A stretch of DNA of 45,467 nt, from NCBI GenBank assembly GCA_035637175.1, contig DASPXS010000185.1, forward strand, positions 1-45,467. The letters run 5' to 3'. The position numbers and the translations under genes were made by a program. Positions 15,849 to 31,600 of this stretch are shown here, in pieces. Each line of letters opens with the position of its first letter. Position 1 is the stretch's first letter. The DNA comes from Haliangiales bacterium. Its GTDB lineage: Bacteria > Verrucomicrobiota > Verrucomicrobiia > Limisphaerales > AV2. Below the pieces are notes generated by a model, which saw only the letters and a program-made list of their open reading frames with translations, was not told where the DNA came from and did not search any database.

Positions 15849-16400
15849 ATGAATAAATTGAACCCTGTGCTGGCCCTTGCCGGCATCGCCGCGCTTCTGG
15901 CTTTAGGAACCGGCAATCTGGCAGCTCAGCAACGCCCGGGTGGAGGCAACTTCGATCCCGCGCAGTTCCGTCAACGCATGTTGGACAACACCCGCGAACG
16001 ACTCGAGGTCAAAAGCGACGACGAATGGAAAATCATTCAGCCGCGGGTCGAGAAAGTCATCGATGCCCGGCGCGACGTCGGGTTTGGCGGAGGGATGGGC
16101 ATGTTCGCCAGAGGCGGGGGCCGGCGCGGCGGTGACGGCGGCAACGCGGCCCAGGGCACGGGCGACAATCAGGGCGGTCGGCGTGGATTACGCGGCGGTG
16201 AAGCCAATCCGGAGGCGGAAGAATTGCAGAAGGCGATTGATTCGAACGCGTCGAGCGATGAAATAAAGGCGAAGCTGGCGAAGCTGCGCGAAGCGCGCAA
16301 AGAAAAAGAGGCCAAGCTGGCCAGCGCGCAGGAAGAACTCAAGAAAGTGTTATCCGTCAAACAAGAAGCGGCTGCGGTCCTGATGGGGCTCTTGCAGTAA
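15849..16400 (+). CDS. Hypothetical secreted protein with a central Gly/Arg-rich region and a C-terminal coiled coil
   Basis: GGAG 8-11 nt upstream of the ATG. Sec signal MNKLNPVLALAGIAALLALGTGNLAAQQ. G/R-rich core (GFGGGMGMFARGGGRRGGDGGNAAQGTGDNQGGRRGLRGGE). Lys/Glu-rich helical tail. No family recognised. Confidence 0.7.
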   Translation: MNKLNPVLALAGIAALLALGTGNLAAQQRPGGGNFDPAQFRQRMLDNTRERLEVKSDDEWKIIQPRVEKVIDARRDVGFGGGMGMFARGGGRRGGDGGNAAQGTGDNQGGRRGLRGGEANPEAEELQKAIDSNASSDEIKAKLAKLREARKEKEAKLASAQEELKKVLSVKQEAAAVLMGLLQ

Positions 16401-16451
16401 CCCACTCCTCCGGCAGGCATTCAAACGAATCCAGCGATTCGAATTCACTTC

Positions 16452-18215
16452 ATGAGCGAGATGGAAAATCAGGAATCGTCTCTGAAACAGTTGCTCGACC
16501 GCATGGTGGAAGCGAAGCAACTGTCTTCCCTGGATGCCGAGACCCTGGTGCGGCAGGGCCGCCAGGGGTCGGAGACGCCCCTGCAATCCGAGGAAGATGT
16601 CCTCCGGTGGGTGGCGAAGGAGTATGACGTCGCCTACACGGCGTTGGAGGAGATCGAACCGGATCGCCAGCTTCTTTCTTTGTTTCCTGCCCGCATTCTG
16701 CTCAAGGAGCAGTTGCTTCCGCTCAGACGAACCAACGGCACCGTCGAAGTCGCGACCAGCCGGCTCTTTGCAACCCAGGGACTGGACGCGCTCAAGACCA
16801 TGACGGGCCTGCGGCTCAAGCCGGTCCTGGCTCCCGCCGAGGCCATCGAGCGCGAGATGAAGAAACGACTCGGCGTCGGCGCGGACACCATCGATACGCT
16901 GGATGAAGAAGCGCCCTTTCAAGTGGTTGATGAAAACAAGGACGACACCAACCTGGACAGCGCCGCCGAAGACGCGTCGATCATCCGGTTCGTCAACCAG
17001 GTCTTGAAAGATGCGATCGAGCTGCGCGCCTCCGACATCCATCTCGAACCGTTCGAGGACGAACTGCGGATTCGTTACCGCATCGACGGTGTGCTGCAGG
17101 AGATTCCGGTGCCGGCGCAAGTGAAGCGGTTCCAACCGGCCATTGTTTCCCGCGTAAAAATATTGAGCCATCTCAACATCGCGGAAAAGCGGCTGCCCCA
17201 GGATGGCCGCATCAAAATCCGACTGGAAAGCAACGAAGTGGACATTCGCGTGTCGGTGATCCCGATGCTCCACGGCGAAGCAGTGGTGATGCGCCTGTTG
17301 CGCCAGAACGCGACCTTGCGCGGGATGAAAGAATTGGGCCTCAACACCCGCGAATTGGAGTGCTTTCGGCGCGTGCTCGAACTGCCTCACGGAATCGTCC
17401 TCGTGACCGGCCCCACCGGCAGCGGCAAGACTTCCACTCTTTACACCGCGCTCAACGAGATCAACGACTCGGTCCGCAAAATCATCACCATCGAAGATCC
17501 GGTCGAATACCAGCTCAGAGGCGTCAATCAGATTCAAATTTCCGAAAAGGCCGGCTTGACCTTCGCGCGCGGGTTGCGTTCGATCCTGCGCCATGACCCC
17601 GACGTGATCCTGATCGGCGAAATTCGCGACCAGGAGACGGCGCAAATTGCGGTGCAGGCATCGCTGACCGGCCATCTGGTTTTTTCCACGCTGCACACGA
17701 ACGATGCGCCCGGCGCCGTCACCCGGCTGATGGACATGGGCGTCGAGGCGTATCTCGTCGCTTCGTCACTTGAAGCCGTGCTCGCGCAACGTCTCGTGCG
17801 CGTGCTCTGCCGGCATTGCAAACAGGAAGACCGTTCACCAACGGCCGAAGCGTTTAAAGCGCAACTGGGCATCCCTGCCAACACGACGTTCTACCGTTCC
17901 GTCGGTTGCCGCGAATGCCGCAATACCGGCTTTTATGGCCGGCAGGCGATTTTCGAGTGGATGGACAGTGACAATGAAATTCGCCAGTTGATTTTGAAGA
18001 ACGCCTCGACGGACCAGATTCGCGACGCGGCCCGCCGCGCGGCGATGTGCACGCTGGCCGAAGACGGCTGGCGCCTCGTGCGGATGGGCATCACCACCGT
18101 CGAGGAAGTGCTCAGCGTGACCACCGCCAAAGAAGTGGCGCGCACCACGCGGAACGAATCACTCGACGGTGTCGCGGCGAACGAAACTCCAGCCGGCGTG
18201 GCGCTCAGCCGCTGA
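16452..18215 (+). CDS. gspE: Type II secretion ATPase GspE (GspE/PilB family)
   Basis: 587 aa. N-terminal T2SSE_N-type domain, Walker A GPTGSGKTST, Asp/His boxes, and a tetracysteine motif CRHC...CRECRNTGFYGR. Confidence 0.93.
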   Translation: MSEMENQESSLKQLLDRMVEAKQLSSLDAETLVRQGRQGSETPLQSEEDVLRWVAKEYDVAYTALEEIEPDRQLLSLFPARILLKEQLLPLRRTNGTVEVATSRLFATQGLDALKTMTGLRLKPVLAPAEAIEREMKKRLGVGADTIDTLDEEAPFQVVDENKDDTNLDSAAEDASIIRFVNQVLKDAIELRASDIHLEPFEDELRIRYRIDGVLQEIPVPAQVKRFQPAIVSRVKILSHLNIAEKRLPQDGRIKIRLESNEVDIRVSVIPMLHGEAVVMRLLRQNATLRGMKELGLNTRELECFRRVLELPHGIVLVTGPTGSGKTSTLYTALNEINDSVRKIITIEDPVEYQLRGVNQIQISEKAGLTFARGLRSILRHDPDVILIGEIRDQETAQIAVQASLTGHLVFSTLHTNDAPGAVTRLMDMGVEAYLVASSLEAVLAQRLVRVLCRHCKQEDRSPTAEAFKAQLGIPANTTFYRSVGCRECRNTGFYGRQAIFEWMDSDNEIRQLILKNASTDQIRDAARRAAMCTLAEDGWRLVRMGITTVEEVLSVTTAKEVARTTRNESLDGVAANETPAGVALSR

Positions 18216-18223
18216 TAATCAGG

Positions 18224-19537
18224 ATGCCCACGTTTCAATACAGAGCGTTGCAAAAAGACGGTACCATCGCCGAAGGGCAACTCGAGGCGGGTGGCCGGCA
18301 GGACGCGTTCCGTCAAATGGAAGGCCGCGGACTGCGCCCCATCAGCCTGGCCGAGCACCGGAACGGCAAACCACAGAAAGCGGAAGCCAACGGCAAAGCG
18401 CAGAAAACCGAGACGCCAAAGGCGGAAAATGTCTCCGGCGAAAAAGTCAATCGCGCGGCGAACTCGACACCGTTCCAGCTTTCCTTTGGCAGCGCGAACA
18501 GGATCTCGGCGCGGACGCTGGAGAATTTCACGCGCCTGCTTTCCAGCCTGCTGGCGGCGGGCGTGCCGCTCAGCCGGGCACTGGTGATTCTGACCAAGGA
18601 AGCGGCCACGCCCGCCGCGCGCGCCAAATGGAAAGAGATTCACGACCTGGTCGTGGACGGCATGTCTCTGGCCGACGCGATGGCGAAGTCTCCCGATACG
18701 TATCCCCGGGTGTATGTGGCGATGGTGGAAGCGGGGGAAACCGGCGGTTTTCTGGACGTGGTATTGGCGCAGATCGCCGATTTTCAGGCGAGCGAGAAGG
18801 AGATGCGGTCCAAGGTCATGGCCGCCATGCTTTATCCCTGCGTTCTGTTGTTCCTGGCGTTGGGCGTTTTGACTTTTCTGCTGGTCTTTTTCATCCCGCG
18901 CTTTCAACTCATTTTTGCCGACTTTCACGCCAACCTTCCGCTCTTGACGCAAGTCATCGTCAAGACCAGCGAAGTGCTCCGTTCGTATGGATTGCTGGCG
19001 GCGTTGGGCCTGGGTATCGCCGCTTTCCTGGTACGCAACTGGTTCGTTTCACCCGCCGGGCGGCGCGCGTGGGAGGGATTGATTCTGCGCGTCCCCGCTG
19101 TCGGGTCTCTGGTGGCGCAGTACGCCATGTCGAGGTTTTGCCGGATGTTGGGCACGTTGCTGGGCGCAGGCGTGCCGCTGATCAACGCCCTCAACGTGGC
19201 GCGCCGCTCGATTGGCAATCAGATTCTCGTGGACGCGGTCTCCAATTCGATTGAACGCGTCAAGGAAGGCAAGGCACTGGGTCCCAGCCTGGCCGATTGC
19301 CGCACACTCTTCTCCGGCTCGGTGTTGGAAATGATTTCGGTCGCGGAGGAGAGCGGGCGTCTGGATCAGGAACTGGTGCGCATCGCCAACGTCACCGAGG
19401 GCGACCTGGATCGCCAGCTCAAAACGGCCGTGGCCCTGGCGGAACCGCTGATGCTTTTCTTCATCGCCGGTTTCATCGGGACCATCTTCATTGGCATGGT
19501 GATGCCCATTTTCACTTTACAACAATACGTCAAATAA
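18224..19537 (+). CDS. gspF: Type II secretion inner-membrane platform protein GspF (GspF/PilC family)
   Basis: MPTFQYRALQKDGTIAEGQLEA... N-terminus and duplicated T2SSF domains (LSSLLAAGVPLSRAL / LGTLLGAGVPLINAL). The ATG at 18224 lies 8 nt after the gspE stop. The track ORF start at 18047 overlaps gspE and is rejected. Confidence 0.9.
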   Translation: MPTFQYRALQKDGTIAEGQLEAGGRQDAFRQMEGRGLRPISLAEHRNGKPQKAEANGKAQKTETPKAENVSGEKVNRAANSTPFQLSFGSANRISARTLENFTRLLSSLLAAGVPLSRALVILTKEAATPAARAKWKEIHDLVVDGMSLADAMAKSPDTYPRVYVAMVEAGETGGFLDVVLAQIADFQASEKEMRSKVMAAMLYPCVLLFLALGVLTFLLVFFIPRFQLIFADFHANLPLLTQVIVKTSEVLRSYGLLAALGLGIAAFLVRNWFVSPAGRRAWEGLILRVPAVGSLVAQYAMSRFCRMLGTLLGAGVPLINALNVARRSIGNQILVDAVSNSIERVKEGKALGPSLADCRTLFSGSVLEMISVAEESGRLDQELVRIANVTEGDLDRQLKTAVALAEPLMLFFIAGFIGTIFIGMVMPIFTLQQYVK

Positions 19538-19558
19538 ATCCGCGATCCGCGATTCAAC

Positions 19559-20023
19559 ATGAAAATCAAAACTTCCATCCGGCTTCCCGTTCAACGGCCG
19601 GGCCAACGGGCGTTCACGCTGGTTGAGCTGCTGCTGGTGCTGGTCATCCTCGGCACCCTGGCGGCTATTGTGCTTCCCAAATTCACCGGTACTACCGAGA
19701 AGGCGCGCCGAACCCAGGCGCAGACCCAGATCGCCGCCTTCAAAACGGCGCTGGAATTGTTTGAGACCGAAAACGGCCATTTCCCCAAAGGCAAAGACGG
19801 CCTGCTGGACCTCATCCAACAGCCGCGCGATGCCCAAAACTGGCATCCCTACCTGCAGGACGAAACGAGTATTCCCAACGATCCCTGGGGTCACCCTTAC
19901 ATTTATCTGTGTCCGGGCAAACACAATCCCAACTCCTACGACATCATCTCGATGGGGCCGGACGGACGCGAAGGAGGCGATGATGACATTACGAGTTGGC
20001 AACAGACAAACCCGAAGCAATGA
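19559..20023 (+). CDS. gspG: Type II secretion major pseudopilin GspG
   Basis: Prepilin N-terminus ...QRAFTLVELLLVLVILGTLAAIVLPKF. GspG hallmark NDPWGHPYIYLCPGKHNPNSYDIISMGPDGREGGDDDI. Confidence 0.9.
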   Translation: MKIKTSIRLPVQRPGQRAFTLVELLLVLVILGTLAAIVLPKFTGTTEKARRTQAQTQIAAFKTALELFETENGHFPKGKDGLLDLIQQPRDAQNWHPYLQDETSIPNDPWGHPYIYLCPGKHNPNSYDIISMGPDGREGGDDDITSWQQTNPKQ

Positions 20024-20558
20024 GTCAGATCGTGTGCGGGCATTCACTCTGATCGAGCTGCTTCTCGTGATGGCGCTGCTGCTGCTCGTGTTCGGAGTGT
20101 CGTTGCCGTCTTTGAAAGGTTTCTTTCGCGGACGGAATCTGGACTCGGAAGCGAGACGTTTTTTGTCGCTGACGCGCTACGGCCAGAGCCGGGCGGTGTC
20201 GGAAGGCGTGCCGATGGTGTTGTGGATTGATACCCGGCGGGGGGCCTACGGTCTGCAGCAGCAAGCCGGTTACACCGACGGCGACAGCAACGCGGTGAGA
20301 TTCACGGTCAGCGAAGAGATGCGGGTTGAGGTTCAAATGCCCGCGGTCACCATGCCGACGAGCCCGTTGAGCCAGACCATGCCGGGCGTGGGCAATGCTA
20401 CGATGATTCGATTTACTCCCGATGGTTTCATCGGGGAAAGCAGCCCTGACCGCATTCTGTTTCGCCAGGGTCAGGACGGTGCCATCGGGATAGTGGAAAG
20501 CACCAATCGGCTGAAATATGAGATGCAAGCCAATGATTCGCTCAATGCCCGCCGTTAA
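19980..20558 (+). CDS. Minor pseudopilin, GspH-like
   Basis: AAGGAGG at 19971-19977, followed by ATGATG at 19980-19985. Prepilin motif VRAFTLIELLLVMALLLLVF, then NLDSEARRFLSLTRYGQSRAV typical of GspH. It overlaps the gspG 3' end. The track ORF start at 19623 is rejected. Confidence 0.75.
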   Translation: MMTLRVGNRQTRSNESDRVRAFTLIELLLVMALLLLVFGVSLPSLKGFFRGRNLDSEARRFLSLTRYGQSRAVSEGVPMVLWIDTRRGAYGLQQQAGYTDGDSNAVRFTVSEEMRVEVQMPAVTMPTSPLSQTMPGVGNATMIRFTPDGFIGESSPDRILFRQGQDGAIGIVESTNRLKYEMQANDSLNARR

Positions 20559-20925
20559 GCGCGCGCCCGCGGCCTTCACGCTGGTCGAGGTGCTGGCGGC
20601 GTTGACGCTCATGGCCATCGTCATTCCGGTGGCGGTGCAAGCCTTGCGCATCGCGAACCTCGCGGGGCAGGTCGGTCAGCGCAAAGCGGTGGCGGCCCGG
20701 GTCGCCGGGCGTGTGCTGAACGAATTGATCGTGACCGGCCAATCGCGGGGCACCACTCAAAACGGCGTCGTCCAGGAAGGGGCGCAACAATATCCGTGGT
20801 CGATGCGTTCGGAGCCGTGGCCTCAGGACGCCATGCGCCTGGTGACTGTTCAAGTCACCTTTCCGGTGCAAGGCCGCGATTACAACGTGCGATTGAGCAC
20901 GCTGATGGACAATTCAACGCAATGA
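20518..20925 (+). CDS. Minor pseudopilin, GspI-like
   Basis: Prepilin motif APAAFTLVEVLAALTLMAIVIPVAV. The size (about 125-135 aa) and position fit GspI. The start could be 20518, 20533 or 20545. Confidence 0.7.
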   Translation: MRCKPMIRSMPAVKRAPAAFTLVEVLAALTLMAIVIPVAVQALRIANLAGQVGQRKAVAARVAGRVLNELIVTGQSRGTTQNGVVQEGAQQYPWSMRSEPWPQDAMRLVTVQVTFPVQGRDYNVRLSTLMDNSTQ

Positions 20926-21647
20926 ACATCGCACGTTCAGCCTGGCGACGCACGCGAGCCTTCACATTGCTGGAGGTGCTCATCGCGGTGATGATTTTTG
21001 CGATTGTGCTCGCGGCGAGCAACACGGTGTTGTATAGCGCGCTCCACCTGCAACGGCGGGCTACTGAATCGGTGGAACAGGCATTGCCCATGCAGCACGC
21101 CTTCGCCGTCATCCGCCGGGACCTCGCCAACCTCGTCGTTCCCGGCGGAACGCTTTCCGGCGTGTTTCAGACCACTTCCATCACCAACCTCGTCGGGGGC
21201 CAATCGAGCCCGGACTTTTACACCAGCGCCGGAATCATTGACGAAACGTCACCGTGGGCGGAAATCCAGAGAGTGTCCTACGTCCTGGCTGACCCCACCA
21301 GCCGCGACGCCACGGGCAAGGACCTCGTCCGGACCGTCACACGCAATTTGCTGCCCGCGACGGTGGAAGATGAACCGGCGCAGCAATGGCTGATGGGCGG
21401 CGTGCAGGGAATGGTGTTCTCTTACTACGACGGCACGCAATGGCGTGATTCATGGGACTCGACAACGGCCGACCCCACGACCGGCCTGACGAACAATCTG
21501 CCGCGGGCGATCAAGGTTCAAATTCAGCTCGCCTCCCAGCAACCCGGCCGCGCCCTGTTCGCGGCCGCGCCGATTGAGCTCGTGGTGCCGATTGTCGTTC
21601 AGGCGCGCACCAATAAAACGCAAGTGGCCAGCGGAGGCGGACGATGA
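20922..21647 (+). CDS. Minor pseudopilin, GspJ-like
   Basis: ATGA overlap with the preceding gene. MNIARSAWRRTRAFTLLEVLIAVMIFAIVLAAS..., then the AVIRRDLANL segment typical of GspJ/PulJ. Confidence 0.75.
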   Translation: MNIARSAWRRTRAFTLLEVLIAVMIFAIVLAASNTVLYSALHLQRRATESVEQALPMQHAFAVIRRDLANLVVPGGTLSGVFQTTSITNLVGGQSSPDFYTSAGIIDETSPWAEIQRVSYVLADPTSRDATGKDLVRTVTRNLLPATVEDEPAQQWLMGGVQGMVFSYYDGTQWRDSWDSTTADPTTGLTNNLPRAIKVQIQLASQQPGRALFAAAPIELVVPIVVQARTNKTQVASGGGR

Positions 21648-22990
21648 ACATCCGAGTGGCGATTGGAAATCGGCGATACAGCAGGTTGGGAACCTGCTCC
21701 ACGGCGCGCCAGGACGGCTCGGTGTTGATTATTGTCATGTGGATCGCGTTCGGCCTGGTGAGCCTGGCGTTGTATTTCGCGCACTCGATGTCGTTGGAGT
21801 TGCGCGCGGCGGACAATCGCGTCGCCGGCATGGAAGCCGAGGAGGCCATCGCGGGCGCGGCGCGTTATGTGAGCAATGTGCTGGCGAATGTCCAGCAGCC
21901 AGGGACGCTCCCGGACACCAACACCTATCGGTTTGCCGCCGTGCCGGTGGGTGATGCCACCTTCTGGCTGATCGGACGTGGCGACGCCCAGGATTCCTCC
22001 GCCACCGCGTATTTCGGCCTGGTCGACGAGGCATCGAAGCTGAACCTCAACACGGCCAGCACCAATATGCTCCTCGGGCTTCCTCGCATGACCGCGGACC
22101 TGGCCGCCAACATCGTTGCCTGGCGCAGCAGCGCTAACAACAATACCGTCGGCGGCGCCAAGTCGGAAACCTACCTGCGACTCAATCCGCCTTACCAATG
22201 CAAGAATGCGCCCTTCGAAACCGTGGATGAATTGCGCCTGGTGTACGGGGCGTATCTGGATGTTCTTTACGGCGAGGACGTGAATCTTAACGGGGTTCTT
22301 GATCCCAACGAGAACGACGGCGATGTGTCGCCGCCCGCGGACGACCAGAATGGCCGGCTGGACCCGGGAATTCTCGAATACGTCACGGTTTACAGCCATG
22401 AGCCCGGCCTGACCACCAACGGCACAGCCCGCGTGGTCGTGACCAATGCGACGCAGTTGGGAAGTTTTCTTCGGAACGCGGGCGTGACGGTGCGTCCGGG
22501 CCGGACGTACACCAGCGTTTTGGATTTCTATTATCAGAGCGGCATCAGCGCGGAGGATTTTGCCAAGGTCGAAGACCAGATCAGAAATCCGAGCCTGGAC
22601 GGTCTGGTGAACGTGAATACCGCCAGCGCCGCGGTATTGGCGTGCCTCTTCGCCGGCGCAGGCGCCGATACCAATAACGCGGTGTCGTTGGTGGCCTACC
22701 GCCAGTCGCAAGCATACCCCTTGACTTCACTGGCCTGGGTCAAGGATGTCCTGGATGCACAAACGGCCAGACGGGTCGGGCCCTATCTCACGGGGAAGAG
22801 CTACCAGTTCACGGCGGACATCGCCGCCGTCGGCCATTTTGGACGGGGCTATCGGCGGGTGAAATACATTTTCGATACCAGCGACAGCGCGCCGAAGGTT
22901 CTTTACCGGCAGGAACTGACCCACATGGGTTGGGCCCTCGGCAAACAAGCGCGGGCCACGTCACTGCTCGCGAAGGCAACAACACCATGA
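21644..22990 (+). CDS. GspK-like minor pseudopilin
   Basis: ATGA overlap. Hydrophobic N-terminus GSVLIIVMWIAFGLVSLALYF without Glu+5. Helix-hairpin-helix-like GLVNVNTASAAVLACL typical of GspK. 448 aa, which is larger than usual. Confidence 0.72.
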   Translation: MNIRVAIGNRRYSRLGTCSTARQDGSVLIIVMWIAFGLVSLALYFAHSMSLELRAADNRVAGMEAEEAIAGAARYVSNVLANVQQPGTLPDTNTYRFAAVPVGDATFWLIGRGDAQDSSATAYFGLVDEASKLNLNTASTNMLLGLPRMTADLAANIVAWRSSANNNTVGGAKSETYLRLNPPYQCKNAPFETVDELRLVYGAYLDVLYGEDVNLNGVLDPNENDGDVSPPADDQNGRLDPGILEYVTVYSHEPGLTTNGTARVVVTNATQLGSFLRNAGVTVRPGRTYTSVLDFYYQSGISAEDFAKVEDQIRNPSLDGLVNVNTASAAVLACLFAGAGADTNNAVSLVAYRQSQAYPLTSLAWVKDVLDAQTARRVGPYLTGKSYQFTADIAAVGHFGRGYRRVKYIFDTSDSAPKVLYRQELTHMGWALGKQARATSLLAKATTP

Positions 22991-24432
22991 TGCCATTGCT
23001 GCAAAGAAAACGGAGGCCTTCCTCGATTGTGGGGCTCGCTCTGGAGGGAGGCCGGCTCGAGGCCGTCGTCCTGCGCCGGACCAACGGCTCGCTCCAGGTC
23101 CTGAAAAACTTTGGCGTATCGCTGGCGCTGAATCCCCTGACCGGCGACCCGGAACTGGTGGGTCGCGAAATTCGGAATCATTTGGATCAGGCGGGCATTC
23201 GCGAACGCGGCTGCGCCGTGTGTGTTCCCTTGAGTTGGGCGTTGACCGCGCAGACGAAAGTGCCCGACATGCCGGAGGCGGACCTCGCGAGTTTTCTGGA
23301 GATTGAAGCCGAACGGGGTTTTCCCTACAGCCCGGACACGCTTTCAGTCTGCCACTCACGCTCCCATTCCGCCAGCGGCGAGCAATATGCCACGCTGGTG
23401 GCCATACCCCGGAACCATCTTTCGCAACTGGAAAGGGCCTTGAAAGCCGCGAAACTTAAGCCGGTGAGTTTCACGCTGGGCGTTGCCGCATTGCAAAGCG
23501 CGGACGACCAACGGCCGCAAGGCGTGCTGGCGCTTGCGATCGGAGACAACAGCGTGGACCTGCAAGTGACTTGCGGAGGCGGCGTCGCCGCGTTGCGCGC
23601 GCTCGAGGGCGCCATCGTAACCGAAGGGGTGCAGAAACGGCTCGACGCCGACCTGCTGGCGCGCGAAGTCCGGGTCACGCTCGGACAGTTGCCGGTCGAG
23701 TTTCGCAGCGCGGTACGGAAGGTAAGGGTGTTTGGGCGCGGTGATTTCGTGCAACGATTCGCCAGTGACATCACGCCCCGCGTGGAAGCGATGGGAATGC
23801 AAGTCGAACTGGTGAAAGGGTACGGCGCCGATGAATTCCACATTCGCCTCCCGTCGGATGCGGTCGTTTCCGCGGCGCTGAGCGCGGCCGCAAGATACCT
23901 GGCCGGAGCGGCTGGTGTTTTTGAATTTATCCCGCCGAAAATCAGCTCCTGGCGGCAACTGAACAACCGGTTTTCCTCAAAGAAGTTGGCCTGGGCGGGG
24001 GCCACAGCGGGTTCCGTGGCCGTGGTGATCGTCACGGCTTTCCTGGTCCAGCAATGGCAGCTTTCGCGGCTTCAATCCAAATGGGCGGCGCTCGGACCGA
24101 AGGTCAAACAACTGGAAGACATGCAGCAACAGATCAGGAAATATCGTCCCTGGTTCGACGAGTCGTTCCGCGGTCTGAGCATCCTGCGCAAACTCACCGA
24201 GGCGTTTCCGGAAGACGGCGTGGTTTCCGCCAAATCCGTGGAGATTCGCGATCTCTCGACGGTCACCTGTTCGGGCACCGCCCGGGACACGCAAGCGTTT
24301 TTGAAGATGCTCGACCAATTGCGCCACACCCGGGAATTCGGCAACGTGCAGGTCGATCAGATTCGCGGCAAAGCCCCCTTGCAGTTCACTTTCAACTTTC
24401 AATGGGGTGAAGGAGGAAGCAATGAAAATTAA
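22987..24432 (+). CDS. GspL-like assembly protein (PilM-like cytoplasmic domain, one TM, PilN-like periplasmic domain)
   Basis: ATGA overlap. N-terminal about 330 aa with an actin/PilM-like pattern (IVGLALEGGRLEAVVL...,...LALAIGDNSVDLQV). Single TM LAWAGATAGSVAVVIVTAFLV (about 23986-24055). Periplasmic alpha/beta domain. Assigned by topology and position, not by strong motif. Confidence 0.65.
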   Translation: MMPLLQRKRRPSSIVGLALEGGRLEAVVLRRTNGSLQVLKNFGVSLALNPLTGDPELVGREIRNHLDQAGIRERGCAVCVPLSWALTAQTKVPDMPEADLASFLEIEAERGFPYSPDTLSVCHSRSHSASGEQYATLVAIPRNHLSQLERALKAAKLKPVSFTLGVAALQSADDQRPQGVLALAIGDNSVDLQVTCGGGVAALRALEGAIVTEGVQKRLDADLLAREVRVTLGQLPVEFRSAVRKVRVFGRGDFVQRFASDITPRVEAMGMQVELVKGYGADEFHIRLPSDAVVSAALSAAARYLAGAAGVFEFIPPKISSWRQLNNRFSSKKLAWAGATAGSVAVVIVTAFLVQQWQLSRLQSKWAALGPKVKQLEDMQQQIRKYRPWFDESFRGLSILRKLTEAFPEDGVVSAKSVEIRDLSTVTCSGTARDTQAFLKMLDQLRHTREFGNVQVDQIRGKAPLQFTFNFQWGEGGSNEN

Positions 24433-24958
24433 AAACCGCCAACAGGGCCTGGCCATTATCGCCATCTCGGTGGTCGCGCTGCTGGCGTCGGACCGATTGA
24501 TCTTTTCCCCGCTCGCCCGCAGTTGGAAGGCGCGCGCCGACCGGATTGTCGAATTGAAGAAATCGATCAGCCGGGGCGCCATGATGCGGGACAGGGAACA
24601 GGCGATTCGGAGTCGCTGGGACAGCATGAGAACCAACACGCTGCCCAACAATGTCTCCGCCGCCGACAACGAAGTGCTCAAAGCGTTCGATCGCTGGTCA
24701 CAGGAAAGCCGGATCAGCGTCAGTTCCATCAGGCCGCAATGGAAACGCAACGGCGAGGACTACATGACGTTGGAGTGCCGCGCCGACGCGTCCGGCAGCA
24801 TGCCGGCGCTCACGCGATTTCTTTACGAACTGGAAAAGGATCCGCTCGCCTTGAAGGTTGAATCGGTGGAAATCAGCTCGCGCGACAACGAGGGCCAGCA
24901 GCTCTCGCTCGCTTTGCTGGTAAGCGGACTGCTGCTCAACCCGCCCTCGCAACCATGA
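24422..24958 (+). CDS. GspM/PilO-like bitopic membrane protein
   Basis: AGGAGG at 24411-24416, then ATG at 24422. N-terminal TM QQGLAIIAISVVALLAS, a coiled segment, and a C-terminal ferredoxin-like region (...MTLECRADASGSMPALTRFLYELEKDP..). Positional assignment. Confidence 0.6.
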   Translation: MKIKNRQQGLAIIAISVVALLASDRLIFSPLARSWKARADRIVELKKSISRGAMMRDREQAIRSRWDSMRTNTLPNNVSAADNEVLKAFDRWSQESRISVSSIRPQWKRNGEDYMTLECRADASGSMPALTRFLYELEKDPLALKVESVEISSRDNEGQQLSLALLVSGLLLNPPSQP

Positions 24959-25710
24959 ACGAACAAGTCCTGCCAGTCGTCGTTTGGCGCGCAGGGGCGC
25001 GCTTCGAAGTCGTCCTTGCAGCGACGCACGGGGCCTCGAGTCGGTCGGGCTCGACCTGCGCGCCGCGGCCGTGTGTGAGTCGCGACCGGGCCAATGCCCG
25101 GTGGCCAACCCTGGGCGCGGGGCGGACGATGTGTTGGAGCGCGGGCGCGTACGTTGTTTCTGCGCGGATGCTGGTCACGCTGATTTTGTTGTTGGCAACC
25201 TCCCTGTTTGCGCGAGCGCAAGGCACGAACGCGCCCGGCCGTCCGGATTATCAGTCGTTCAAAATCCTCACGGAGCGGAACATTTTCGACCCCAACCGCT
25301 CGTCACGTTCCGGCCGGCGGACTGAGACGCGGAGACCGACCAGAGTGGATTCCTTTGCGCTGGTTGGAACCCTCAGCTACGAGAAGGGAACCTTCGCCTT
25401 TTTTGACGGTAGTGATTCGTCCTATAAAAGAGCTCTCAAAACCGGCGACATCATCGCCGGTTGCAGGATCGCGGAGATAACTGCCGACCGCGTGAAGCTG
25501 GAAACCAACGGCGTGCAGATGGAACTGAGCGTGGGCATGCAGATGAAGAAACAGGACGAAGGTGAATGGCAATTGGGCGGCCGCGCCGAGTTCTCCGGCG
25601 CCCCGGTGGCCACCACGGCCGCAAACGAAAAAACCGACGGCACCAACGGCGGCGGGGAAAGCGACGTGTTAAAGAAACTGCTACAAAAACGTGAACAGGA
25701 ATTAAAATGA
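24955..25710 (+). CDS. GspC/PilP-like periplasmic protein (secretin-interacting HR-type domain)
   Basis: The core FALVGTLSYEKGTFAFFDGSDSSYKRALKTGDIIAGCRIAEITADRVKLETNG resembles the GspC HR / PilP beta-sandwich pattern. ATGA overlaps at both ends. The real start may be the later Met at 25168 (MLVTLILLLATSLFARAQG signal/anchor). Confidence 0.55.
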   Translation: MNEQVLPVVVWRAGARFEVVLAATHGASSRSGSTCAPRPCVSRDRANARWPTLGAGRTMCWSAGAYVVSARMLVTLILLLATSLFARAQGTNAPGRPDYQSFKILTERNIFDPNRSSRSGRRTETRRPTRVDSFALVGTLSYEKGTFAFFDGSDSSYKRALKTGDIIAGCRIAEITADRVKLETNGVQMELSVGMQMKKQDEGEWQLGGRAEFSGAPVATTAANEKTDGTNGGGESDVLKKLLQKREQELK

Positions 25711-27383
25711 AAACCGTGAAGAACCTTATTCTTGGGACGACATTGGCCGTCGCCTTGCTGAGCACCGCAGCGGGACAACAAGCGGACTCCACCAAAGCGG
25801 ACAAACAGCCGGCCGCCGCCGAACCGAAAGTCGGCGAACAAACGCCGCCGCCCGCCGACAAGCCGGCAGCGGGAGCCGTCGACAAAGCGGCGGACAACCC
25901 TGCCCCCGCGCCGCCGCCCAAAGAACAGGCGCCGTCTGTTCTCACGCCCGCGTCGGCGAATGCCGGGGCTGCGAGCGGGTTGCGCCTGAACTTCCGCGGC
26001 GTGCCATTGGAGATGGTGTTGAATTATCTGAGCGACGCCGCCGGATTCGTCATCAACATCAAACCGGGAACCGACGTGCGGGGCAAAGTGGATGTCTGGA
26101 GCAATCAGCCGTTGAGCAAGGACGAGGCGGTCGATCTGCTGAACACGGTCTTGAACCAAAACGGCTACGCGGCGGTCCGGAAAGGAAGGACGCTGACGAT
26201 CATGAGCCGCGATGAGGCCAAGAAGGATAAGATTCCGGTCATCCCCAACATCCCCACCAATGGTCCTGCCGGCATGGCCGAGAGCGACGAGATGGCCACC
26301 CAGATCATCCCGATCCGATATGCCAACGCGACTCAAATGACCAAGGACCTTCAGCCGCTCCTTCCCTCCTACGCCAGCCTGACGGCCAACGAAAGCGCCA
26401 ACGCGCTCGTGCTGACGGACACCCAGTCCGATGCCCGACGGATGGTCGAGATTGTCCGGGCGCTCGACACCTCCATTTCCAGCATTGCGACGGTCCGGGT
26501 TTTCCCGCTCAAATTCGCGGACGCGAAAGACCTGGCGAGCGCGGTCAAGGATTTGTTCCAGTCACCGACCCAGCAAAACAATAATAATCCTGCCGCCCGG
26601 TTTTTTGCCCGGTTCGGTCGCGGCGGCTTTGGCGGAGGTCCCGGCGGCGGCGGAGACCAATCGGAAGGGACCGGGAACAGCGAAGCCCGGACCGCGGCCT
26701 CGCGCGTCGTCGCCGTCGCCGATGATCGATCCAATTCCCTGGTGGTCAGCGCACCGGAGGAATTCATACCGACGATCGAACACCTGGTTACTGAATTGGA
26801 TGTCAGCGCGGTGGACATCACCGAACTGCGGGTTTTCCATTTGAAAAACGCCGACCCGGTGGAGATGGCGGAACTTTTTTCGCAGTTGTTCCCGGATGAG
26901 ACCAAGACCAGTAACGACGCGAACCAAAACCAGGGCGGATTTCGCTTCCGGGGGGGATTTGGGGGCGCGTTCAATAACGCGAACCAGAATACCCAATCCA
27001 CGAGCGACCGGATGAAAAAGAAAGGCCGGGTCACGGCAGTGGCGGACCAGCGGACGTCGTCGATCATTGTCAGCGCGGCCAGCGAATTGATGGACCAAAT
27101 CGCGGACATGATCGCGCAACTCGATTCCAGTTCTCCGAAGAAGCAAATGGTGTTTGTCTTTCCCATCGAGAACGCCAATCCGCAGCAGGCTCAGCAGATC
27201 CTGCAAGACCTGTTTCAGCGCAGCAGCACCAGCATGAACCGGAACTCCGCGAACCAGAACAACACCCTGCTCAACCGGAGCCAGTCGAACAATCAAGGGA
27301 CGACCGGCGGCACGGGCTTCGGGAACACCGGTTCCGGCAATAACGGCGGCTTGAATGGCGGCCAGGGACAGACGTTCCGTTAA
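25707..27383 (+). CDS. Secretin N-domain protein (GspD N0-N1-N2-N3 plus half of a further N-domain; no secretin pore domain)
   Basis: Signal peptide MKTVKNLILGTTLAVALLSTAAG and a Pro/Ala linker. N0-like LNFRGVPLEMVLNYLSDAAGFVINI. Three complete Secretin_N-type modules follow (IIPIRYANATQM...ALVLTDTQSDARRMVEIVRALD; VRVFPLKFADAKDL...RVVAVADDRSNSLVVSAPEEF...LVTELD; LRVFHLKNADPVEM...RVTAVADQRTSSIIVSAASELMDQIADMIAQLD). A fourth module is present only as its first half (MVFVFPIENANPQQAQQILQDLFQ) and ends in an N/Q/G-rich tail and TAA. Confidence 0.85.
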   Translation: MKTVKNLILGTTLAVALLSTAAGQQADSTKADKQPAAAEPKVGEQTPPPADKPAAGAVDKAADNPAPAPPPKEQAPSVLTPASANAGAASGLRLNFRGVPLEMVLNYLSDAAGFVINIKPGTDVRGKVDVWSNQPLSKDEAVDLLNTVLNQNGYAAVRKGRTLTIMSRDEAKKDKIPVIPNIPTNGPAGMAESDEMATQIIPIRYANATQMTKDLQPLLPSYASLTANESANALVLTDTQSDARRMVEIVRALDTSISSIATVRVFPLKFADAKDLASAVKDLFQSPTQQNNNNPAARFFARFGRGGFGGGPGGGGDQSEGTGNSEARTAASRVVAVADDRSNSLVVSAPEEFIPTIEHLVTELDVSAVDITELRVFHLKNADPVEMAELFSQLFPDETKTSNDANQNQGGFRFRGGFGGAFNNANQNTQSTSDRMKKKGRVTAVADQRTSSIIVSAASELMDQIADMIAQLDSSSPKKQMVFVFPIENANPQQAQQILQDLFQRSSTSMNRNSANQNNTLLNRSQSNNQGTTGGTGFGNTGSGNNGGLNGGQGQTFR

Positions 27384-27406
27384 GGAGCCCCAGAAGAGAA
27401 CTCAAC

Positions 27407-28603
27407 ATGAACAAAAAAAACTCTAACATGAGATGGCTGGTGATTTGTTTGGTGACCTTGCTGCCTGCCGGCGGCCTGCTCGCCCAACAGCGGACGACTC
27501 AGGGTGCGGGTGCGCGTGGCGGCGGCGGGTCAACCGTTTCGGGGACGAGCCGGCAATACACTCCCAACAGCGAGGTCGGTGAGGCGACGATCACCGTGGA
27601 TCCTGAATCGCGGCGGCTGATCGTCATCACGGACGAAGAAACCAGCAAATATGTCGGCCAGGTGGTCACCAACCTGGATCGTCCCGAACCGCAAGTGCTC
27701 ATCAAAGTCGTTTTCCTGGAGGTTACTCACAATAACAGTTTGGACATCGGAGTTGAGGGTGGGTTCAGCCGCGGTATCGACAACACCACCACCGGAATCG
27801 TAACCCACGCGTTCGGGCTGTCCGCACTCAACAGCTCGCCCGCCTCAAACGCAGTCAATGTGTTCGGGCAGCCCGTACAAAGCTTTGTGCCGGCGCCGCC
27901 GGGCGCGGGACTTTATCAGGTGTTGGGCACGGACTATCAGGTGACGCTGCGGGCCATTGCCCAGGCGGGGAAAACCGAGGTGTTATCGCGACCTTCCATT
28001 CTCGCCCGCAACAACCAGCAGGCAACCATAACCGTCGGCCAATCGGTTCCATTGGTGACCAGCGTGAGCTATAACGGACTCAATGGGACTCCGGTGAGCG
28101 CCATCAGCTACCAGAGCGTCGGGATCATTCTGCGGGTGACGCCCTTTATCAACTCCAACGGCCTGGTGGAGATGATTGTTTCACCCCAAATCTCGCAGCT
28201 CTCGGCCCAGTCGGTTACCGTCTCCGCCGGGGTGAGCGCTCCCGTGATTGATTTGCGCTCGGCCGACACGGTGGTGGTTACGCCGGACGGGCAGACAGTC
28301 ATCATCGGCGGTTTGATGCAAAACCAGAAAACCCAAACCGACAGCAAAATTCCTCTTTTGGGAGACATACCTTTGCTCGGCAACCTCTTTAAACGAAAGG
28401 TCAAATCGAACGTGAAGACCGAACTGCTGATCTTTTTGACCCCGCACATCGTTTATGAGCCTTCCCAACTGGCGGGTCTTTCTGCGACGGAACGAGGCAA
28501 CACGCAATTGGCGCCAAAGGCGTTTACGGAAGAGGAGTTGAATCGTTACCTCGACACGTTGCCGGCGAAAGATGATGCCTCGCCGAAGAAAAAGGGGAAA
28601 TGA
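27407..28603 (+). CDS. Secretin pore-domain protein (second half of an N-domain plus the GspD/PilQ secretin C-domain) with its own signal peptide
   Basis: Signal MNKKNSNMRWLVICLVTLLPAGGLLAQQ and a G-rich stretch. ATITVDPESRRLIVITDEETSKYVGQVVTNLD is the second half of a Secretin_N module. The secretin core follows: VLIKVVFLEV...YQVTLRAIAQAGKTEVLSRPSILARNNQQATITVGQ...IPLLGDIPLLGNLFK...ELLIFLTPHIV. Confidence 0.88.
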   Translation: MNKKNSNMRWLVICLVTLLPAGGLLAQQRTTQGAGARGGGGSTVSGTSRQYTPNSEVGEATITVDPESRRLIVITDEETSKYVGQVVTNLDRPEPQVLIKVVFLEVTHNNSLDIGVEGGFSRGIDNTTTGIVTHAFGLSALNSSPASNAVNVFGQPVQSFVPAPPGAGLYQVLGTDYQVTLRAIAQAGKTEVLSRPSILARNNQQATITVGQSVPLVTSVSYNGLNGTPVSAISYQSVGIILRVTPFINSNGLVEMIVSPQISQLSAQSVTVSAGVSAPVIDLRSADTVVVTPDGQTVIIGGLMQNQKTQTDSKIPLLGDIPLLGNLFKRKVKSNVKTELLIFLTPHIVYEPSQLAGLSATERGNTQLAPKAFTEEELNRYLDTLPAKDDASPKKKGK

Positions 28604-28641
28604 CCCGGCGGGACCCGGTGTGATTTTGCTTTGACGCGAAA

Positions 28642-30225
28642 ATGATCAAACGAACCCGGCTTGTTTTTGGATTTGGATTGTTGCTGACTGTCTGGGTCAT
28701 GGTGGCTGCCTGGCAGGTGGTCGAGCATGTTCGAGTCAAGGAATCCGCCCGGGCGGCATTGATCAATCGCTCCCGGGACATCACCACGACCTTGGGACTC
28801 GTGATTCGGTCCCAGCGACGATTCGGAGGGATGGTTTCGCAGGAGCGACTGGAGCCGGCCCTCGGGGAGCTGGTCAAATCCGGCGAATTGAGTTCTGTGG
28901 CGCTGTTGAATGCCGCCGGCGAAGTCGTCGCCTCGGCGGGCGCTCCAATCGATGTCGAGACCAAGGGGACGATGCGGACCGGAGAACATTGGGATTCCCG
29001 GAGCGTTACCCTCGTTAACCTGGTTGATTTGGGCGCCAGCGTGGCCCAGGAAGGGGAGACCAATCGTCCGACGATTGTTCTCCCAAGACGGGAGCCGGGC
29101 AGCGGACCGCGTGAAGGCGACCGCCCCCGTCCCAGCGGCGAGATGCCCCCTCCTCCCGATGGCGAGTTGCGAACGAACGGTCCGCTGGCGTCGAACGCTC
29201 CGACCAGCCTGTCGAACGCGGTTGCCCGCATGCCCGCTTCAGTCAGCAATGACCCGGGGACAACCAACCGGGCCGACGGCGGCCCGCGCGAGCGCCCTCC
29301 CGGCCGGCCACGCTTTGGCCGTCCCCCCTGGGTGAGCGAGGAAGAATTCAAATCATTGGTGGAAAAGCGGGGACTGCACGGTTTGGTGATCGTCATGTCC
29401 ACGGAGGCGTTCCTGTCGGCCTGTGCCCAGGACCTTTGGTTGCGGTGCATCATCGGGTGTTTTGCCAGCGTTGCGGTCGTTGGTCTCGGATTGGCCTGGC
29501 GAAACCAGGCAAAGTCGGCGGAGTTGCAGATGCGCCTGCTCCGGGCCAGCGAGTTGAATACCCATCTGAAAGAGATGAATCTGGCCGCGGCCGGACTGGC
29601 GCACGAAACGCGCAATCCGCTGAATATCATTCGCGGGCTGGCGCAAATGATCTCCAAACAGAAGGAGGCGCCGACGGAAGTTCGCAGCCGTTCCCGTGAA
29701 ATCATTGACGAGACGGATCGGGTGACCGCCCAATTGAACGAATTCATCAACTACTCGCGCCCGCGCGAAGTCCGCCGCTCGTCCGTATCATTGAGTCTGG
29801 TCGTTGGCGAGGTCGTTCGTGCCCTGGGTTACGATCTGGAGGAAAAGTGCATTCGCCTGCAGGTGCCGGAGTCGCTGCCGGTGATCGAAGGGGACGAGCA
29901 ATTGCTCCGCCAGGCGCTTTTCAATCTCCTGATCAACGCGGTTCAAGCCGTCGAACGGGGCGGGGACATCGAGGTCGCGGCTTGGAAGAATAATTCCCAC
30001 GGGGTCATTCTGGAGATTCGCGACAACGGCCCCGGCGTGCCGCCGGAACATCGCATCGAGATCTTCAAACCGTACTTCACCACGCACCAAAAAGGGACGG
30101 GCCTGGGTCTGGCGGTGGTCCAACAGATTGTTCTGGCGCACGGTTGGGAGATTGAATGCCTGCCGAACGAGCCCAGGGGCGCGGTGTTGCGAATCACGCA
30201 CCTGAAGCTCGCCTCCGGCGGCTGA
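28642..30225 (+). CDS. Sensor histidine kinase (NtrB/PilS-like, two TM segments)
   Basis: TM1 LVFGFGLLLTVWVMVAAW, an extracytoplasmic region and TM2 CIIGCFASVAVVGLGLAW. HisKA H-box AAGLAHETRNPLNII. HATPase N/G boxes LFNLLINAVQA, IRDNGPGV, GTGLGLAVV. Confidence 0.88.
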   Translation: MIKRTRLVFGFGLLLTVWVMVAAWQVVEHVRVKESARAALINRSRDITTTLGLVIRSQRRFGGMVSQERLEPALGELVKSGELSSVALLNAAGEVVASAGAPIDVETKGTMRTGEHWDSRSVTLVNLVDLGASVAQEGETNRPTIVLPRREPGSGPREGDRPRPSGEMPPPPDGELRTNGPLASNAPTSLSNAVARMPASVSNDPGTTNRADGGPRERPPGRPRFGRPPWVSEEEFKSLVEKRGLHGLVIVMSTEAFLSACAQDLWLRCIIGCFASVAVVGLGLAWRNQAKSAELQMRLLRASELNTHLKEMNLAAAGLAHETRNPLNIIRGLAQMISKQKEAPTEVRSRSREIIDETDRVTAQLNEFINYSRPREVRRSSVSLSLVVGEVVRALGYDLEEKCIRLQVPESLPVIEGDEQLLRQALFNLLINAVQAVERGGDIEVAAWKNNSHGVILEIRDNGPGVPPEHRIEIFKPYFTTHQKGTGLGLAVVQQIVLAHGWEIECLPNEPRGAVLRITHLKLASGG

Positions 30226-30229
30226 GCCA

Positions 30230-31600
30230 ATGCGACCGGTCACGGACAACGCGAACGTGAAGAGCCCGCGGATTCTGATAGTGGACGACGATGCTGCGCA
30301 GCGCAGTCTGCTCGATTCATTCTTGAAAAGCCAGGGCTTCGACACCGTCCCTGTGGCTTCCGGCGAAGCGGCGCTGGAGGTTCTTCGCAAGGGCGATATC
30401 GGCATGATGATCTCCGATGTGCGGATGCCGGGCCTCTCCGGTCTGGAAACGCTCCGCCAGGCGCGCCAGGAACACGCTGTGCTGCCGGTCCTGCTCGTGA
30501 CGGCGTATGCCGACATTCGCGAAGCCGTCGGGGCCATGCGGGACGGCGCGCTCAATTATCTGGCCAAGCCGATCGACCTCGACGAGTTGCTGGCTTCCGT
30601 GCAGCAGGCGACCGGCGTCTCCGAGGCCGCGCCGGTCAGGTTCAGCGAAGACAAACAACTACCCGGGCACATCATCGCGCACAGTCCGCTGATGAAGGCG
30701 TTGTTCCGCGACGCTTCGCTCATTGCCTCCTCGGACAGTCGCGTGTTGATCACGGGTGAAAGCGGTGTTGGCAAGGAGGTGCTGGCCGACGTGATTCACC
30801 TGTGGAGTCCCCGTTCCTCCGGTCCCCTGGTCAAAGTCAACTGCGCCGCCATTCCGGAAACACTGTTGGAGAGCGAACTCTTCGGCCACGAAAAAGGGGC
30901 GTTCACCGGCGCCGTGGTGCAACGAATCGGCCGTTTCGAGCAGGCCAACGGCGGAACGATCTTCCTCGATGAGATCGCGGAAATGTCTCCTCAACTTCAG
31001 GCAAAACTGCTGCGGGTCACGCAGGACGGCCGGTTCCAACGCGTCGGCTCAAACACTGAAGTCCAGACCAACACCCGGATTTTGGCCGCCACCAACCGGA
31101 ACCTGGAAGAGGAGGTCAAAAAAGGACATTTCCGCGAAGACCTGTTCTACCGTCTGGATGTGGTCGAACTCAACATCCCTTCCCTGCGCGAGCGGCGGGA
31201 GGACATCCTTCCCCTGGCCAGCCATTTTGTCGCGGAACTGACTCAAGGCCGTGCGCGGTTCTCAGCGCTGGTCACGGATTGTCTGGGGCGATACGCCTGG
31301 CCTGGAAACGTGCGTGAACTGCGCAACGCGATGGAACGGGCGACCTTGCTTTCGCGGGGTGAACTGATTCTGCCCGAGCACCTCCCGGCGCGGGTGCGCG
31401 CCGTGATCCAACAGTCCGCCGCTGAACCGGTTGACGCCCAGCGCCTGGAGGAAATCGAACACCAGGCCATCTCTCAAGCGTTGAGCAAACACAATTTCAA
31501 TCGCACGGAAACAGCCAAAGCTTTGGGCATAAGCCGCCGGGCATTGATCTACAAGCTGCAACGCCTTCGCGAACTTGGTTTCGAAGTGGATCCACAATAG
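30230..31600 (+). CDS. Sigma-54-dependent response regulator (NtrC/PilR family: REC + AAA+ + Fis-type HTH)
   Basis: REC: RILIVDDD...[10 protein letters not shown]...LVTAY...YLAKP. AAA+: GESGVGKE Walker [16 protein letters not shown] (GAFTGA motif), IFLDEI Walker B. C-terminal HTH: [20 protein letters not shown]. Confidence 0.93.

Follow-up and report, generated by a model that had tools for sequence, protein, structure and literature searches.

A densely packed cluster of 15 genes from a soil verrucomicrobium probably represents the Xps-type T2SS of the Limisphaerales/Pedosphaerales (Verrucomicrobiota), encoded as one sigma-54-dependent operon. Judged from its sequence, it is most likely a previously unstudied variant of this type, and the sigma-54 operon would be autoregulated. 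What distinguishes the variant in sequence comparisons is a predicted split secretin throughout the order, a leading exported protein (sec183) and a conserved putative sigma-54 promoter with its enhancer. To our knowledge, the biology of T2SS is known almost entirely from Proteobacteria. Limisphaerales and Pedosphaerales are abundant polymer-degrading bacteria of soil and freshwater in which secreted hydrolases presumably play a central part.

Gene content and organisation of the cluster

The genes were delineated by open reading frame and profile analysis between positions 15849 and 31600 of the window (the whole stretch of 45,467 nucleotides that was analysed). All are on the + strand, in the order sec183-gspE-F-G-H-I-J-K-L-M-C-Dn-Dc-HK-RR. 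The first-pass annotation had described a complete T2SS-type cluster of fourteen linked, co-directional genes. Pfam and NCBIfam profiles confirmed the completeness, and every gene was found at the position, on the strand and in the order that had been given; the tight co-directional packing also stands, with a corrected count of 15 open reading frames (the annotation's own list also held 15 items). The junctions I/J, J/K, K/L, M/C and C/Dn are ATGA overlaps, the overlaps G/H, H/I and L/M measure 44, 41 and 11 nt, and the remaining junctions are gaps of 4 to 51 nt. The two-component pair follows the secretin after 38 nt, as noted previously, and this gap between Dc and HK leaves no room for a promoter.

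The architecture is conserved in about 100 loci of the Limisphaerales/Pedosphaerales. The gene order, for which a survey of PVC genomes had been suggested at the annotation stage, was recovered across the order: sec183-E..M-C-Dn-Dc was present in all of 20 loci, from about 20 families, and in 80 named loci. The synteny comparison of relatives showed no neighbour gene conserved with the cluster beyond the genus. Thus no linked substrate is evident, in agreement with the earlier remark that there was no obvious substrate gene. T2SS substrates encoded away from the machine are the rule.

The ATPase gene gspE (16452..18215) encodes a T2SSE domain (PF00437, 1.5e-136) with an MshEN-type N-domain, a Walker A motif and a tetracysteine motif, and the inner-membrane platform gene gspF (18224..19537) encodes two T2SSF domains (PF00482 x2). 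Both were recognised by Pfam, their NCBIfam scores lying under the equivalog cut-offs: the best match of gspE was TIGR02533 with 601.7 for a cut-off of 630, and that of gspF was TIGR02120 with 331 for a cut-off of 424. The NCBIfam E models fail to separate the six E paralogs of the genome. The major pseudopilin gene gspG (19559..20023, leader junction QRA/FTLVE) scored 128.8 bits against TIGR01710, for a cut-off of 88.85, and matched PF08334 at 1.2e-30. The minor pseudopilin set comprises gspH (19980..20558, with a match to the XpsH model), gspI (20518..20925, a weak XpsI/GspI match), gspJ (20922..21647) and gspK (21644..22990, large and with a helix-hairpin-helix insert), H, J and K being assigned by profile search. 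In this set PF12019, PF11612, PF21687 and PF03934 were above their cut-offs and PF02501 was slightly under (24.1 for 25). Class III leaders were found in all four of GspH, I, J and G.

The gspL-type platform protein (22987..24432) has an actin-like PilM-type cytoplasmic domain, a TM segment and a periplasmic domain. Its only profile match, to a PilM-like N-domain, was below cut-off; its position and size fit GspL, and ortholog searches found its strong orthologs confined to its own order. gspM (24422..24958) belongs to the XpsM / T2SSM_b subtype (PF10741, 24.6 for a cut-off of 21.7; XpsM model, 1.5e-10), and its position and size agree with this. The gspC-like protein (24955..25710), whose start at 24955 is kept within the genus, consists of a TM segment and an HR/PilP-like domain without PDZ; its matches to GspC_delta, T2SSC and PilP were all weak, and its position and size fit GspC.

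The first reading had found no gspO/pilD in the window, and a profile search of the window likewise detected no A24 peptidase. The prepilin peptidase expected in the genome of a T2SS was located elsewhere: the single A24_N_bact + Peptidase_A24 gene of the assembly lies on contig C76 (3192-4286), between aroE and aroC, and is presumably used by all six of the genome's filament/secretion systems. It is common for prepilin peptidases to be shared and unlinked (PMC6668835). Ala at position -1, previously taken as a mark of this cluster, proved to be general, prepilin-like N-termini having 26 Ala versus 19 Gly at -1 genome-wide and the two residues interchanging among orthologs.

The Xps system of Xanthomonas has the order E-F-G-H-I-J-K-L-M-C-D, with GspO outside and without pilotin or GspA/B/N (PMC11981180). 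Compared by gene order with that description, the cluster shows an Xps-type architecture: the order is identical, the peptidase is off-cluster, and pilotin, GspA/B and GspN are missing in both. Its M, I and H match the XpsM, XpsI and XpsH models, and its C is without PDZ. The terminal position of C and D and the absent peptidase, first considered atypical, thus correspond to the described Xps organisation (PMC11981180) and are no longer to be read as marks of an unusual system. Some features nevertheless set the cluster apart. Xps has a single-gene secretin where two exported proteins are predicted here, and three predicted operons with no dedicated two-component system in the cluster, whereas here an HK/NtrC pair and a putative sigma-54 promoter with enhancer are built in and an extra exported protein heads the operon. 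The proteins share little sequence identity with the Xps models, and all scores are below the equivalog cut-offs. Classical Gsp/Pul/Eps systems (Klebsiella, Vibrio, E. coli gspC-O) share the same core E, F, G, H, I, J, K, L, M, C and D, and GspG passes the TIGR01710 cut-off, but they have C and D first and O last, with neither sigma-54 control nor a split secretin, while here C and D are last and O is elsewhere. The proposal of a distinct T2SS variant is therefore retained in part: the cluster differs from textbook Gsp and the kinase/regulator pair is truly linked to it, whereas the gene order, the unlinked peptidase and Ala(-1) are ordinary.

The two secretin genes and sec183

The secretin is encoded as two polypeptides, each predicted to be exported separately. 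Dn (25707..27383) has a signal peptide, N0, three Secretin_N modules and a Gly/Asn-rich tail; Dc (27407..28603) has its own signal peptide, a Gly-rich linker and the Secretin pore domain. TIGR02517 was matched in two halves, 1-294 on Dn and 274-599 on Dc. Every domain of GspD (N0-N3 and pore) is present, across two genes rather than in a single polypeptide. The split was found in 83/83 loci of the Limisphaerales/Pedosphaerales (17/17 and 66/66), each Dc opening with a start codon of its own and carrying a separate signal peptide, and the secretin is a single frame in all 8 distant clusters examined outside the order in the same phylum. A conserved two-gene secretin challenges the assumption of single-chain secretin subunits and could help to show how the N-domain rings and the pore dock.

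The first cistron, sec183 (15849..16400), encodes an all-helical protein that has a Sec signal peptide, contains a linker rich in Gly and Arg, and carries the motif L-[TS]-x-x-Q-E-A in its C-terminal part. It occurs in every related locus covering the site and is always first. A Pfam search assigned no family to the window's protein. The variant is common in environmental metagenomes: among public metagenome proteins clustered at 90% identity, sec183 alone matches >5,000 clusters, nearly all named 'hypothetical'. It is also kept at two loci (L009 and L017) whose genomes lack HK/RR orthologs and the promoter. Because sec183 is retained without the kinase/activator pair, we infer that it may belong to the machine as an accessory component in the periplasm and not act solely as a regulator.

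The kinase/activator pair and the promoter region

The sensor histidine kinase HK (28642..30225) comprises two TM segments, a periplasmic region of ~230 aa, HisKA and HATPase_c. The NtrC-family response regulator RR (30230..31600), a sigma-54 activator by its domains, comprises REC, an AAA+ Sigma54_activat domain with GAFTGA and a Fis-type HTH (HTH_8). With rpoN, present in one copy outside the cluster, the regulator, kinase and sigma factor of NtrC-family sigma-54 control were all found in the genome. The linkage of the pair to the cluster, on which the first reading depended, is upheld in relatives: HK directly follows Dc in 54/55 relatives with room, and RR directly follows HK in 32 of 52 loci. 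RR orthologs follow directly or within 3.5 kb and are 63-84% identical, versus ~40-46% for paralogs.

A sigma-54 (-24/-12) promoter, TGGCACATCATCTGC, is predicted at 15752..15766 on the + strand, 83 nt before the sec183 ATG; its -12 element is CTGC, not TTGC. Two enhancer palindromes on the same strand are candidate RR sites, the distal one, GCGCAAGACCTGCGC (15674..15688), centred 72 nt upstream of the -24 GG and the proximal one, GCGCAAATTCTGCGC (15706..15720), 40 nt upstream of GG, which gives a spacing of 32 nt (~3 helical turns). The family consensus is tGCGCAA-N4-TGCGCa. At least 2 palindrome copies were found in 53/55 related promoters, centred ~52 and ~83 nt upstream of GG. Of 59 related upstream windows, 55 have a sigma-54 site with at least 8/10 positions, against an expectation of 0.076 per window, and 39 have one with at least 9/10 positions (0.01 expected), counts that overstate the statistical support because the related loci are phylogenetically non-independent. 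No other arrangement of a palindrome pair adjoining a sigma-54 site was found in the assembly. Conservation and positional enrichment thus point to a -24/-12 promoter with upstream candidate activator sites at the operon. No RR ortholog was found in two genomes, G038 and G013 (best matches of 43-45% identity), and their loci L009 and L017 are without the palindrome pair and the promoter. In G036 the DNA elements are present and a 63%-identical RR lies on another contig; L018 has the HK/RR pair and the palindromes with a degenerate -12 element. A conserved sigma-54 enhancer of fixed geometry before a whole T2SS operon would offer a directly testable regulatory model.

In Pseudomonas and Myxococcus, the sensor kinase PilS and the NtrC-type activator PilR act on the -24/-12 promoter of the pilin gene. 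The cluster resembles this system as a filament-superfamily locus with its own sensor kinase and NtrC-type activator for a -24/-12 promoter. It differs in that the predicted promoter precedes the entire T2SS operon, of which the regulators are the last cistrons, and in that the kinase has a large periplasmic domain, PilS being a multi-TM sensor. NCBIfam holds a curated kinase subfamily whose name ties it to T2SS (NF038348, 'T2SS_HK'), so a T2SS-linked kinase is not unprecedented; the window's HK scored 65 bits against the 450-bit cut-off of that family, over the catalytic core only.

Proposed operation and alternative explanations

The kinase would sense a periplasmic or envelope signal and phosphorylate the activator, which would bind the two GCGCAA-N4-TGCGC sites and open the sigma-54 promoter. 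Through the opened promoter the two regulators would be expressed along with sec183 and the secretion machine, which amounts to positive autoregulation. The unlinked peptidase would mature the Ala/Gly(-1) pseudopilins, Dn and Dc would together form a single channel in the outer membrane, and folded proteins encoded elsewhere would be exported by the machine. Only tentatively do we propose a re-engineered Limisphaerales T2SS, in which the channel would be made from two independently exported polypeptides helped by the lineage-specific periplasmic sec183, and the machine made only on demand via a self-contained sensor/sigma-54 enhancer circuit. If true, the secretin would be the first in nature to be built in two pieces, and the system would be a tractable one in which to study T2SS biogenesis induced by a signal.

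The GspG score over its equivalog cut-off, the complete GspH-I-J-K set and the presence of an XpsM-type M and a GspC/PilP-HR-like C make it improbable that the product is a type IV-like pilus on the cell surface, serving adhesion, motility or uptake, or that a polymer other than protein is exported. Moreover, profile searches found no PilT, PilN, PilO and PilP set in the cluster and no PilT-type retraction ATPase on this contig, and separate pilus-type loci with PilT-like ATPases lie elsewhere in the genome. The pilus or polymer reading draws on gspE, which scores nearly equally against the PilB and GspE models and has Geobacter PilB as its best solved relative, on the PilM-like cytoplasmic domain of L, on the unlinked substrate and on the part in slime export that has been ascribed to T2SS-type secretins of cyanobacteria and myxobacteria (PMC12475490). 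It is scarcely credible that the secretin was split by decay or mis-assembly (a frameshift artefact) and that the cluster as a whole is therefore such a locus. Although the MAG that contains the window is fragmented (475 contigs), the break adjoins low-complexity Gly/Asn-rich sequence and a few relatives (L007, L008 and L020) have additional breaks within Dn, the break position is identical in all 83 independent assemblies, multi-megabase contigs included, the downstream half always restarts with its own export signal, and the remaining genes are all intact.

As for the regulatory genes, sec183, HK and RR could form an envelope-stress loop like that of CpxP or ZraP-ZraS-ZraR, sec183 being a periplasmic chaperone/inhibitor with a damping effect on the kinase; expression of the machine would then be tuned by the load of secretion. 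We consider this rather unlikely. The E. coli zraP-zraSR unit, in which ZraP is annotated as 'signaling pathway modulator', likewise joins a helical protein of the periplasm, small in size, to an HK and a sigma-54 activator; its kinase sensor domain is unrelated, and the target here would be a secretion machine. The helical, Sec-exported sec183 and its L-[TS]-x-x-Q-E-A motif fit such a role, as do matches of its orthologs to PF13801 Metal_resist (weak, in 10/44, best 1.7e-4) and to LTXXQ (3/44), the occurrence of Spy, CnrX and CpxP among its sub-threshold sequence and fold matches, and two JGI records that call family members 'Spy/CpxP family'. The top two NCBIfam matches of HK are AtoS and ZraS, and the top three of RR are AtoC, NtrC and ZraR. 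However, an hhalign profile comparison of sec183 with E. coli ZraP detected nothing beyond the signal peptide (probability 1.2%), Foldseek gave no sec183 match with E<1, and RR is only 44% identical to ZraR, as any NtrC-family paralog would be. The retention of sec183 at L009 and L017 also points to a role in the machine itself. Very unlikely, in turn, is a pair that is a mere neighbour controlling other genes, e.g. the downstream lipase/beta-oxidation operon. Two-component pairs are numerous, with 5-10 NtrC-family paralogs per genome among these genomes, and in about one third of the loci HK and RR are separated by unrelated genes, but HK keeps its place after Dc while the downstream genes vary, behind a gap too short for a promoter. 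Finally, the assembly has just one enhancer and sigma-54 promoter of this type, directed towards the cluster, and the two genomes without the RR ortholog have lost the DNA elements as well.

Gene content, conservation and affiliation of the cluster

ORF listing, translation, and Pfam and NCBIfam scans identified 15 co-directional genes at 15849-31600 on the forward strand; the first-pass annotation had counted fourteen, although its own list held fifteen items. The first cistron, sec183, encodes a 183-aa protein with a Sec signal peptide and no family match. It is followed by GspE (T2SSE at 1.5e-136, with an N-domain of MshEN type), GspF (two T2SSF domains), GspG (TIGR01710 at 128.8 bits, exceeding the cut-off of 88.85), GspH, I, J and K, an L-type protein of 481 aa with a PilM-like cytoplasmic domain, a GspM of the XpsM/T2SSM_b subtype and a weakly recognisable GspC/PilP-HR protein. 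The secretin is encoded by two genes, Dn (N0 and three Secretin_N modules) and Dc (its own signal peptide and the Secretin domain). Last come a HisKA/HATPase histidine kinase (HK) with a large periplasmic region and an NtrC-family regulator (RR) comprising REC, AAA+ with GAFTGA and a Fis-type HTH. The gene junctions consist of five ATGA overlaps, three longer overlaps and, for the remainder, gaps of 4-51 nt.

The named related loci were gathered by a profile search of genome contigs with a 9-sequence alignment of the L protein. They belong to the Limisphaerales/Pedosphaerales of the Verrucomicrobiota, the nearest being soil MAGs of AV2, AV5 and AV7. Strong orthologs of L were found in 26 of the 36 genera sampled from this order, and only weak PilM-domain matches beyond it. 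The order sec183-E-F-G-H-I-J-K-L-M-C-Dn-Dc was observed in every locus long enough to be compared (20 loci of about 20 families; 80 named loci). HK directly follows Dc in 54/55 loci and RR lies immediately behind HK in 32 of 52, at least 8 more having RR 1-3.5 kb downstream, past variable unrelated insertions. The dedicated kinase and sigma-54 activator proposed in the first-pass annotation are thus real, and the pair stays linked to the cluster in relatives.

Several of the public MAGs with a Limisphaerales-type cluster (L043, L054, L067, L078, L080, L086 and L093) are labelled Akkermansia muciniphila, Bifidobacterium, Candidatus Acidoferrum or Sulfopaludibacter, probably because the taxon is wrong or the bin contaminated. 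The junction between HK and RR is an insertion hotspot, with 1-3.5 kb of unrelated genes in L057, L058, L061, L073 and L078: for instance, L061 carries an IS630-like transposase pair, L058 a glutamate-synthase-like pair and L057 an NHL-repeat protein. Being mutually unrelated and not conserved, these inserts were ruled out as secretion substrates. Divergently oriented upstream of the cluster are a PSD/PSCyt heme-c protein with domains DUF1592/1588/1587/1585/1595 (11040-13625, reverse strand) and a PQQ-like beta-propeller protein (13814-15484, reverse strand). The latter adjoins the cluster within the genus only (L016, L023, L025); it was discarded as a linked partner, as was the downstream patatin/beta-oxidation operon, no linkage being seen past the genus.

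The absence of a substrate gene, which had been counted as atypical, is usual for T2SS. Two-component control through sigma-54 is already known for the genes of type IV pilins. In Xanthomonas euvesicatoria the Xps system has been reported to comprise 'XpsE, F, G, H, I, J, K, L, M, C and D', with a GspO homolog outside the cluster and with no pilotin and no GspA/B (PMC11981180). Two more of the four points held to be atypical, the gene order and the missing peptidase, thus correspond to an architecture already described. An NCBI-curated 'T2SS_HK' kinase family exists, of which the HK of the cluster is not a member (65 vs 450 bits). Our literature search turned up no paper on a T2SS of a verrucomicrobium, on a secretin divided between two genes or on a gsp operon under sigma-54 control. 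We conclude that the cluster is intact and represents a genuine, order-wide T2SS variant of Xps type. It is set apart by a secretin naturally encoded in two genes, by a periplasmic protein particular to the lineage (sec183) in first place and by a predicted self-contained sigma-54 enhancer circuit.

The two-gene secretin and sec183

The secretin is divided into the two frames Dn and Dc in both sets of loci (17/17 and 66/66), and every Dc begins with a signal peptide of its own, to which a Gly-rich linker is joined. In other classes of the phylum, eight distant T2SS-like clusters share the E..M-D order and have a single secretin frame of 733-1041 aa. The split is therefore derived and fixed in the order rather than an assembly artefact. 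In three relatives (L007, with Dn at 11437-12360 / 12361-13158 of the oriented locus, L008 and L020) the N-part is broken again, by an in-frame stop or frame change in a Gly-rich loop between N-modules. This second break could reflect either misassembly of low-complexity sequence or one more division of the gene.

sec183 is present in every locus covering its site, including the most distant locus and those without HK/RR. Its family comprises more than 5,000 protein clusters at 90% identity, nearly all named 'hypothetical'. The AlphaFold model is helical: two blocks of helix are modelled with confidence (pLDDT above 90), and a disordered Gly/Arg linker separates them. The protein might act in feedback in the manner of CpxP/ZraP. 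Of 44 orthologs, 10 match PF13801 (CpxP/Spy/ZraP clan) weakly and 3 match LTXXQ. The fold search gave no significant match, Spy, CnrX and CpxP turning up only among non-significant sequence and fold matches, and homology to ZraP was rejected when direct profile comparison with the E. coli protein failed. The feedback reading is further weakened because sec183 persists without the kinase, and we regard sec183 as an accessory protein of the periplasm, as yet uncharacterised.

A predicted sigma-54 promoter with paired palindromes

A -24/-12 site, TGGCACATCATCTGC, lies at 15752-15766, 83 nt ahead of the sec183 ATG. The same element, often a perfect TGGCACG-N4-TTGC, is found about 90-113 nt ahead of the ATG in related loci. 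Among the 80 named loci, 55/59 upstream windows contain a site matching at least 8 of 10 positions (0.076 expected per window), and 39 of 59 one matching at least 9 of 10 (0.01 expected). Further upstream, at 15674-15688 and 15706-15720, are two palindromes of family consensus tGCGCAA-N4-TGCGCa. Of 55 promoters, 53 carry two or more copies, centred about 52 and about 83 nt from the GG of the -24 element, with a spacing of 31-32 nt. In the genus of the window these distances are 40 and 72 nt, one helical turn closer to the GG than in most of the relatives compared (L023-L102), with unchanged phasing.

The pair in the window is the only one adjoining a sigma-54 site in the whole assembly. A second pair, on contig C123, was put down to chance, since it falls within the coding sequence of a LysR-type gene and no sigma-54 site accompanies it. 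Two genomes of the order have no RR ortholog (best matches 43-45% identity), and the palindromes and promoter are absent from them too; a third keeps both DNA elements and encodes an RR, 63% identical, on another contig. HK starts 38 nt behind Dc and RR 4 nt behind HK. Judging from the sequence, the two regulatory genes would most simply be the last cistrons of the very operon that they are predicted to activate.

Prepilin peptidase and Ala(-1) in the rest of the genome

The assembly to which the window belongs as contig C185 (475 contigs, 92.8% complete) has one rpoN copy and one A24 prepilin peptidase (A24_N_bact and Peptidase_A24), which was located on contig C76. The latter's neighbourhood (C76:2243-5775), with an aroE-like gene (shikimate dehydrogenase) on one side and an aroC-like gene (chorismate synthase) on the other, is a housekeeping context and not a pilus or secretion locus. 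With six long GspE/PilB-like ATPases, several PilT-like ATPases and six or seven secretins on contigs other than that of the window, a single shared peptidase is expected, as noted for such systems by Denise et al. 2019 (PMC6668835); presumably the C76 enzyme is common to all these GspE/PilB-type systems. Contigs C84, C401, C250, C328, C448 and C62 carry the other five long ATPases and, in frames of 554-1184 aa, several secretins encoded by a single gene; C84 alone encodes three long ATPases, one PilT-like ATPase and one secretin. The NCBIfam GspE vs PilB score was discarded as a system classifier, all six long ATPases matching both with similar scores.

Ala at -1 of the prepilin cleavage site had been thought to set the variant apart. 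Across the genome, 26 prepilin-like N-termini have Ala at this position and 19 have Gly, and the two residues interchange freely among orthologs of the cluster's pseudopilins in relatives. Ala(-1) is thus a habit of the lineage and not a property of the cluster.
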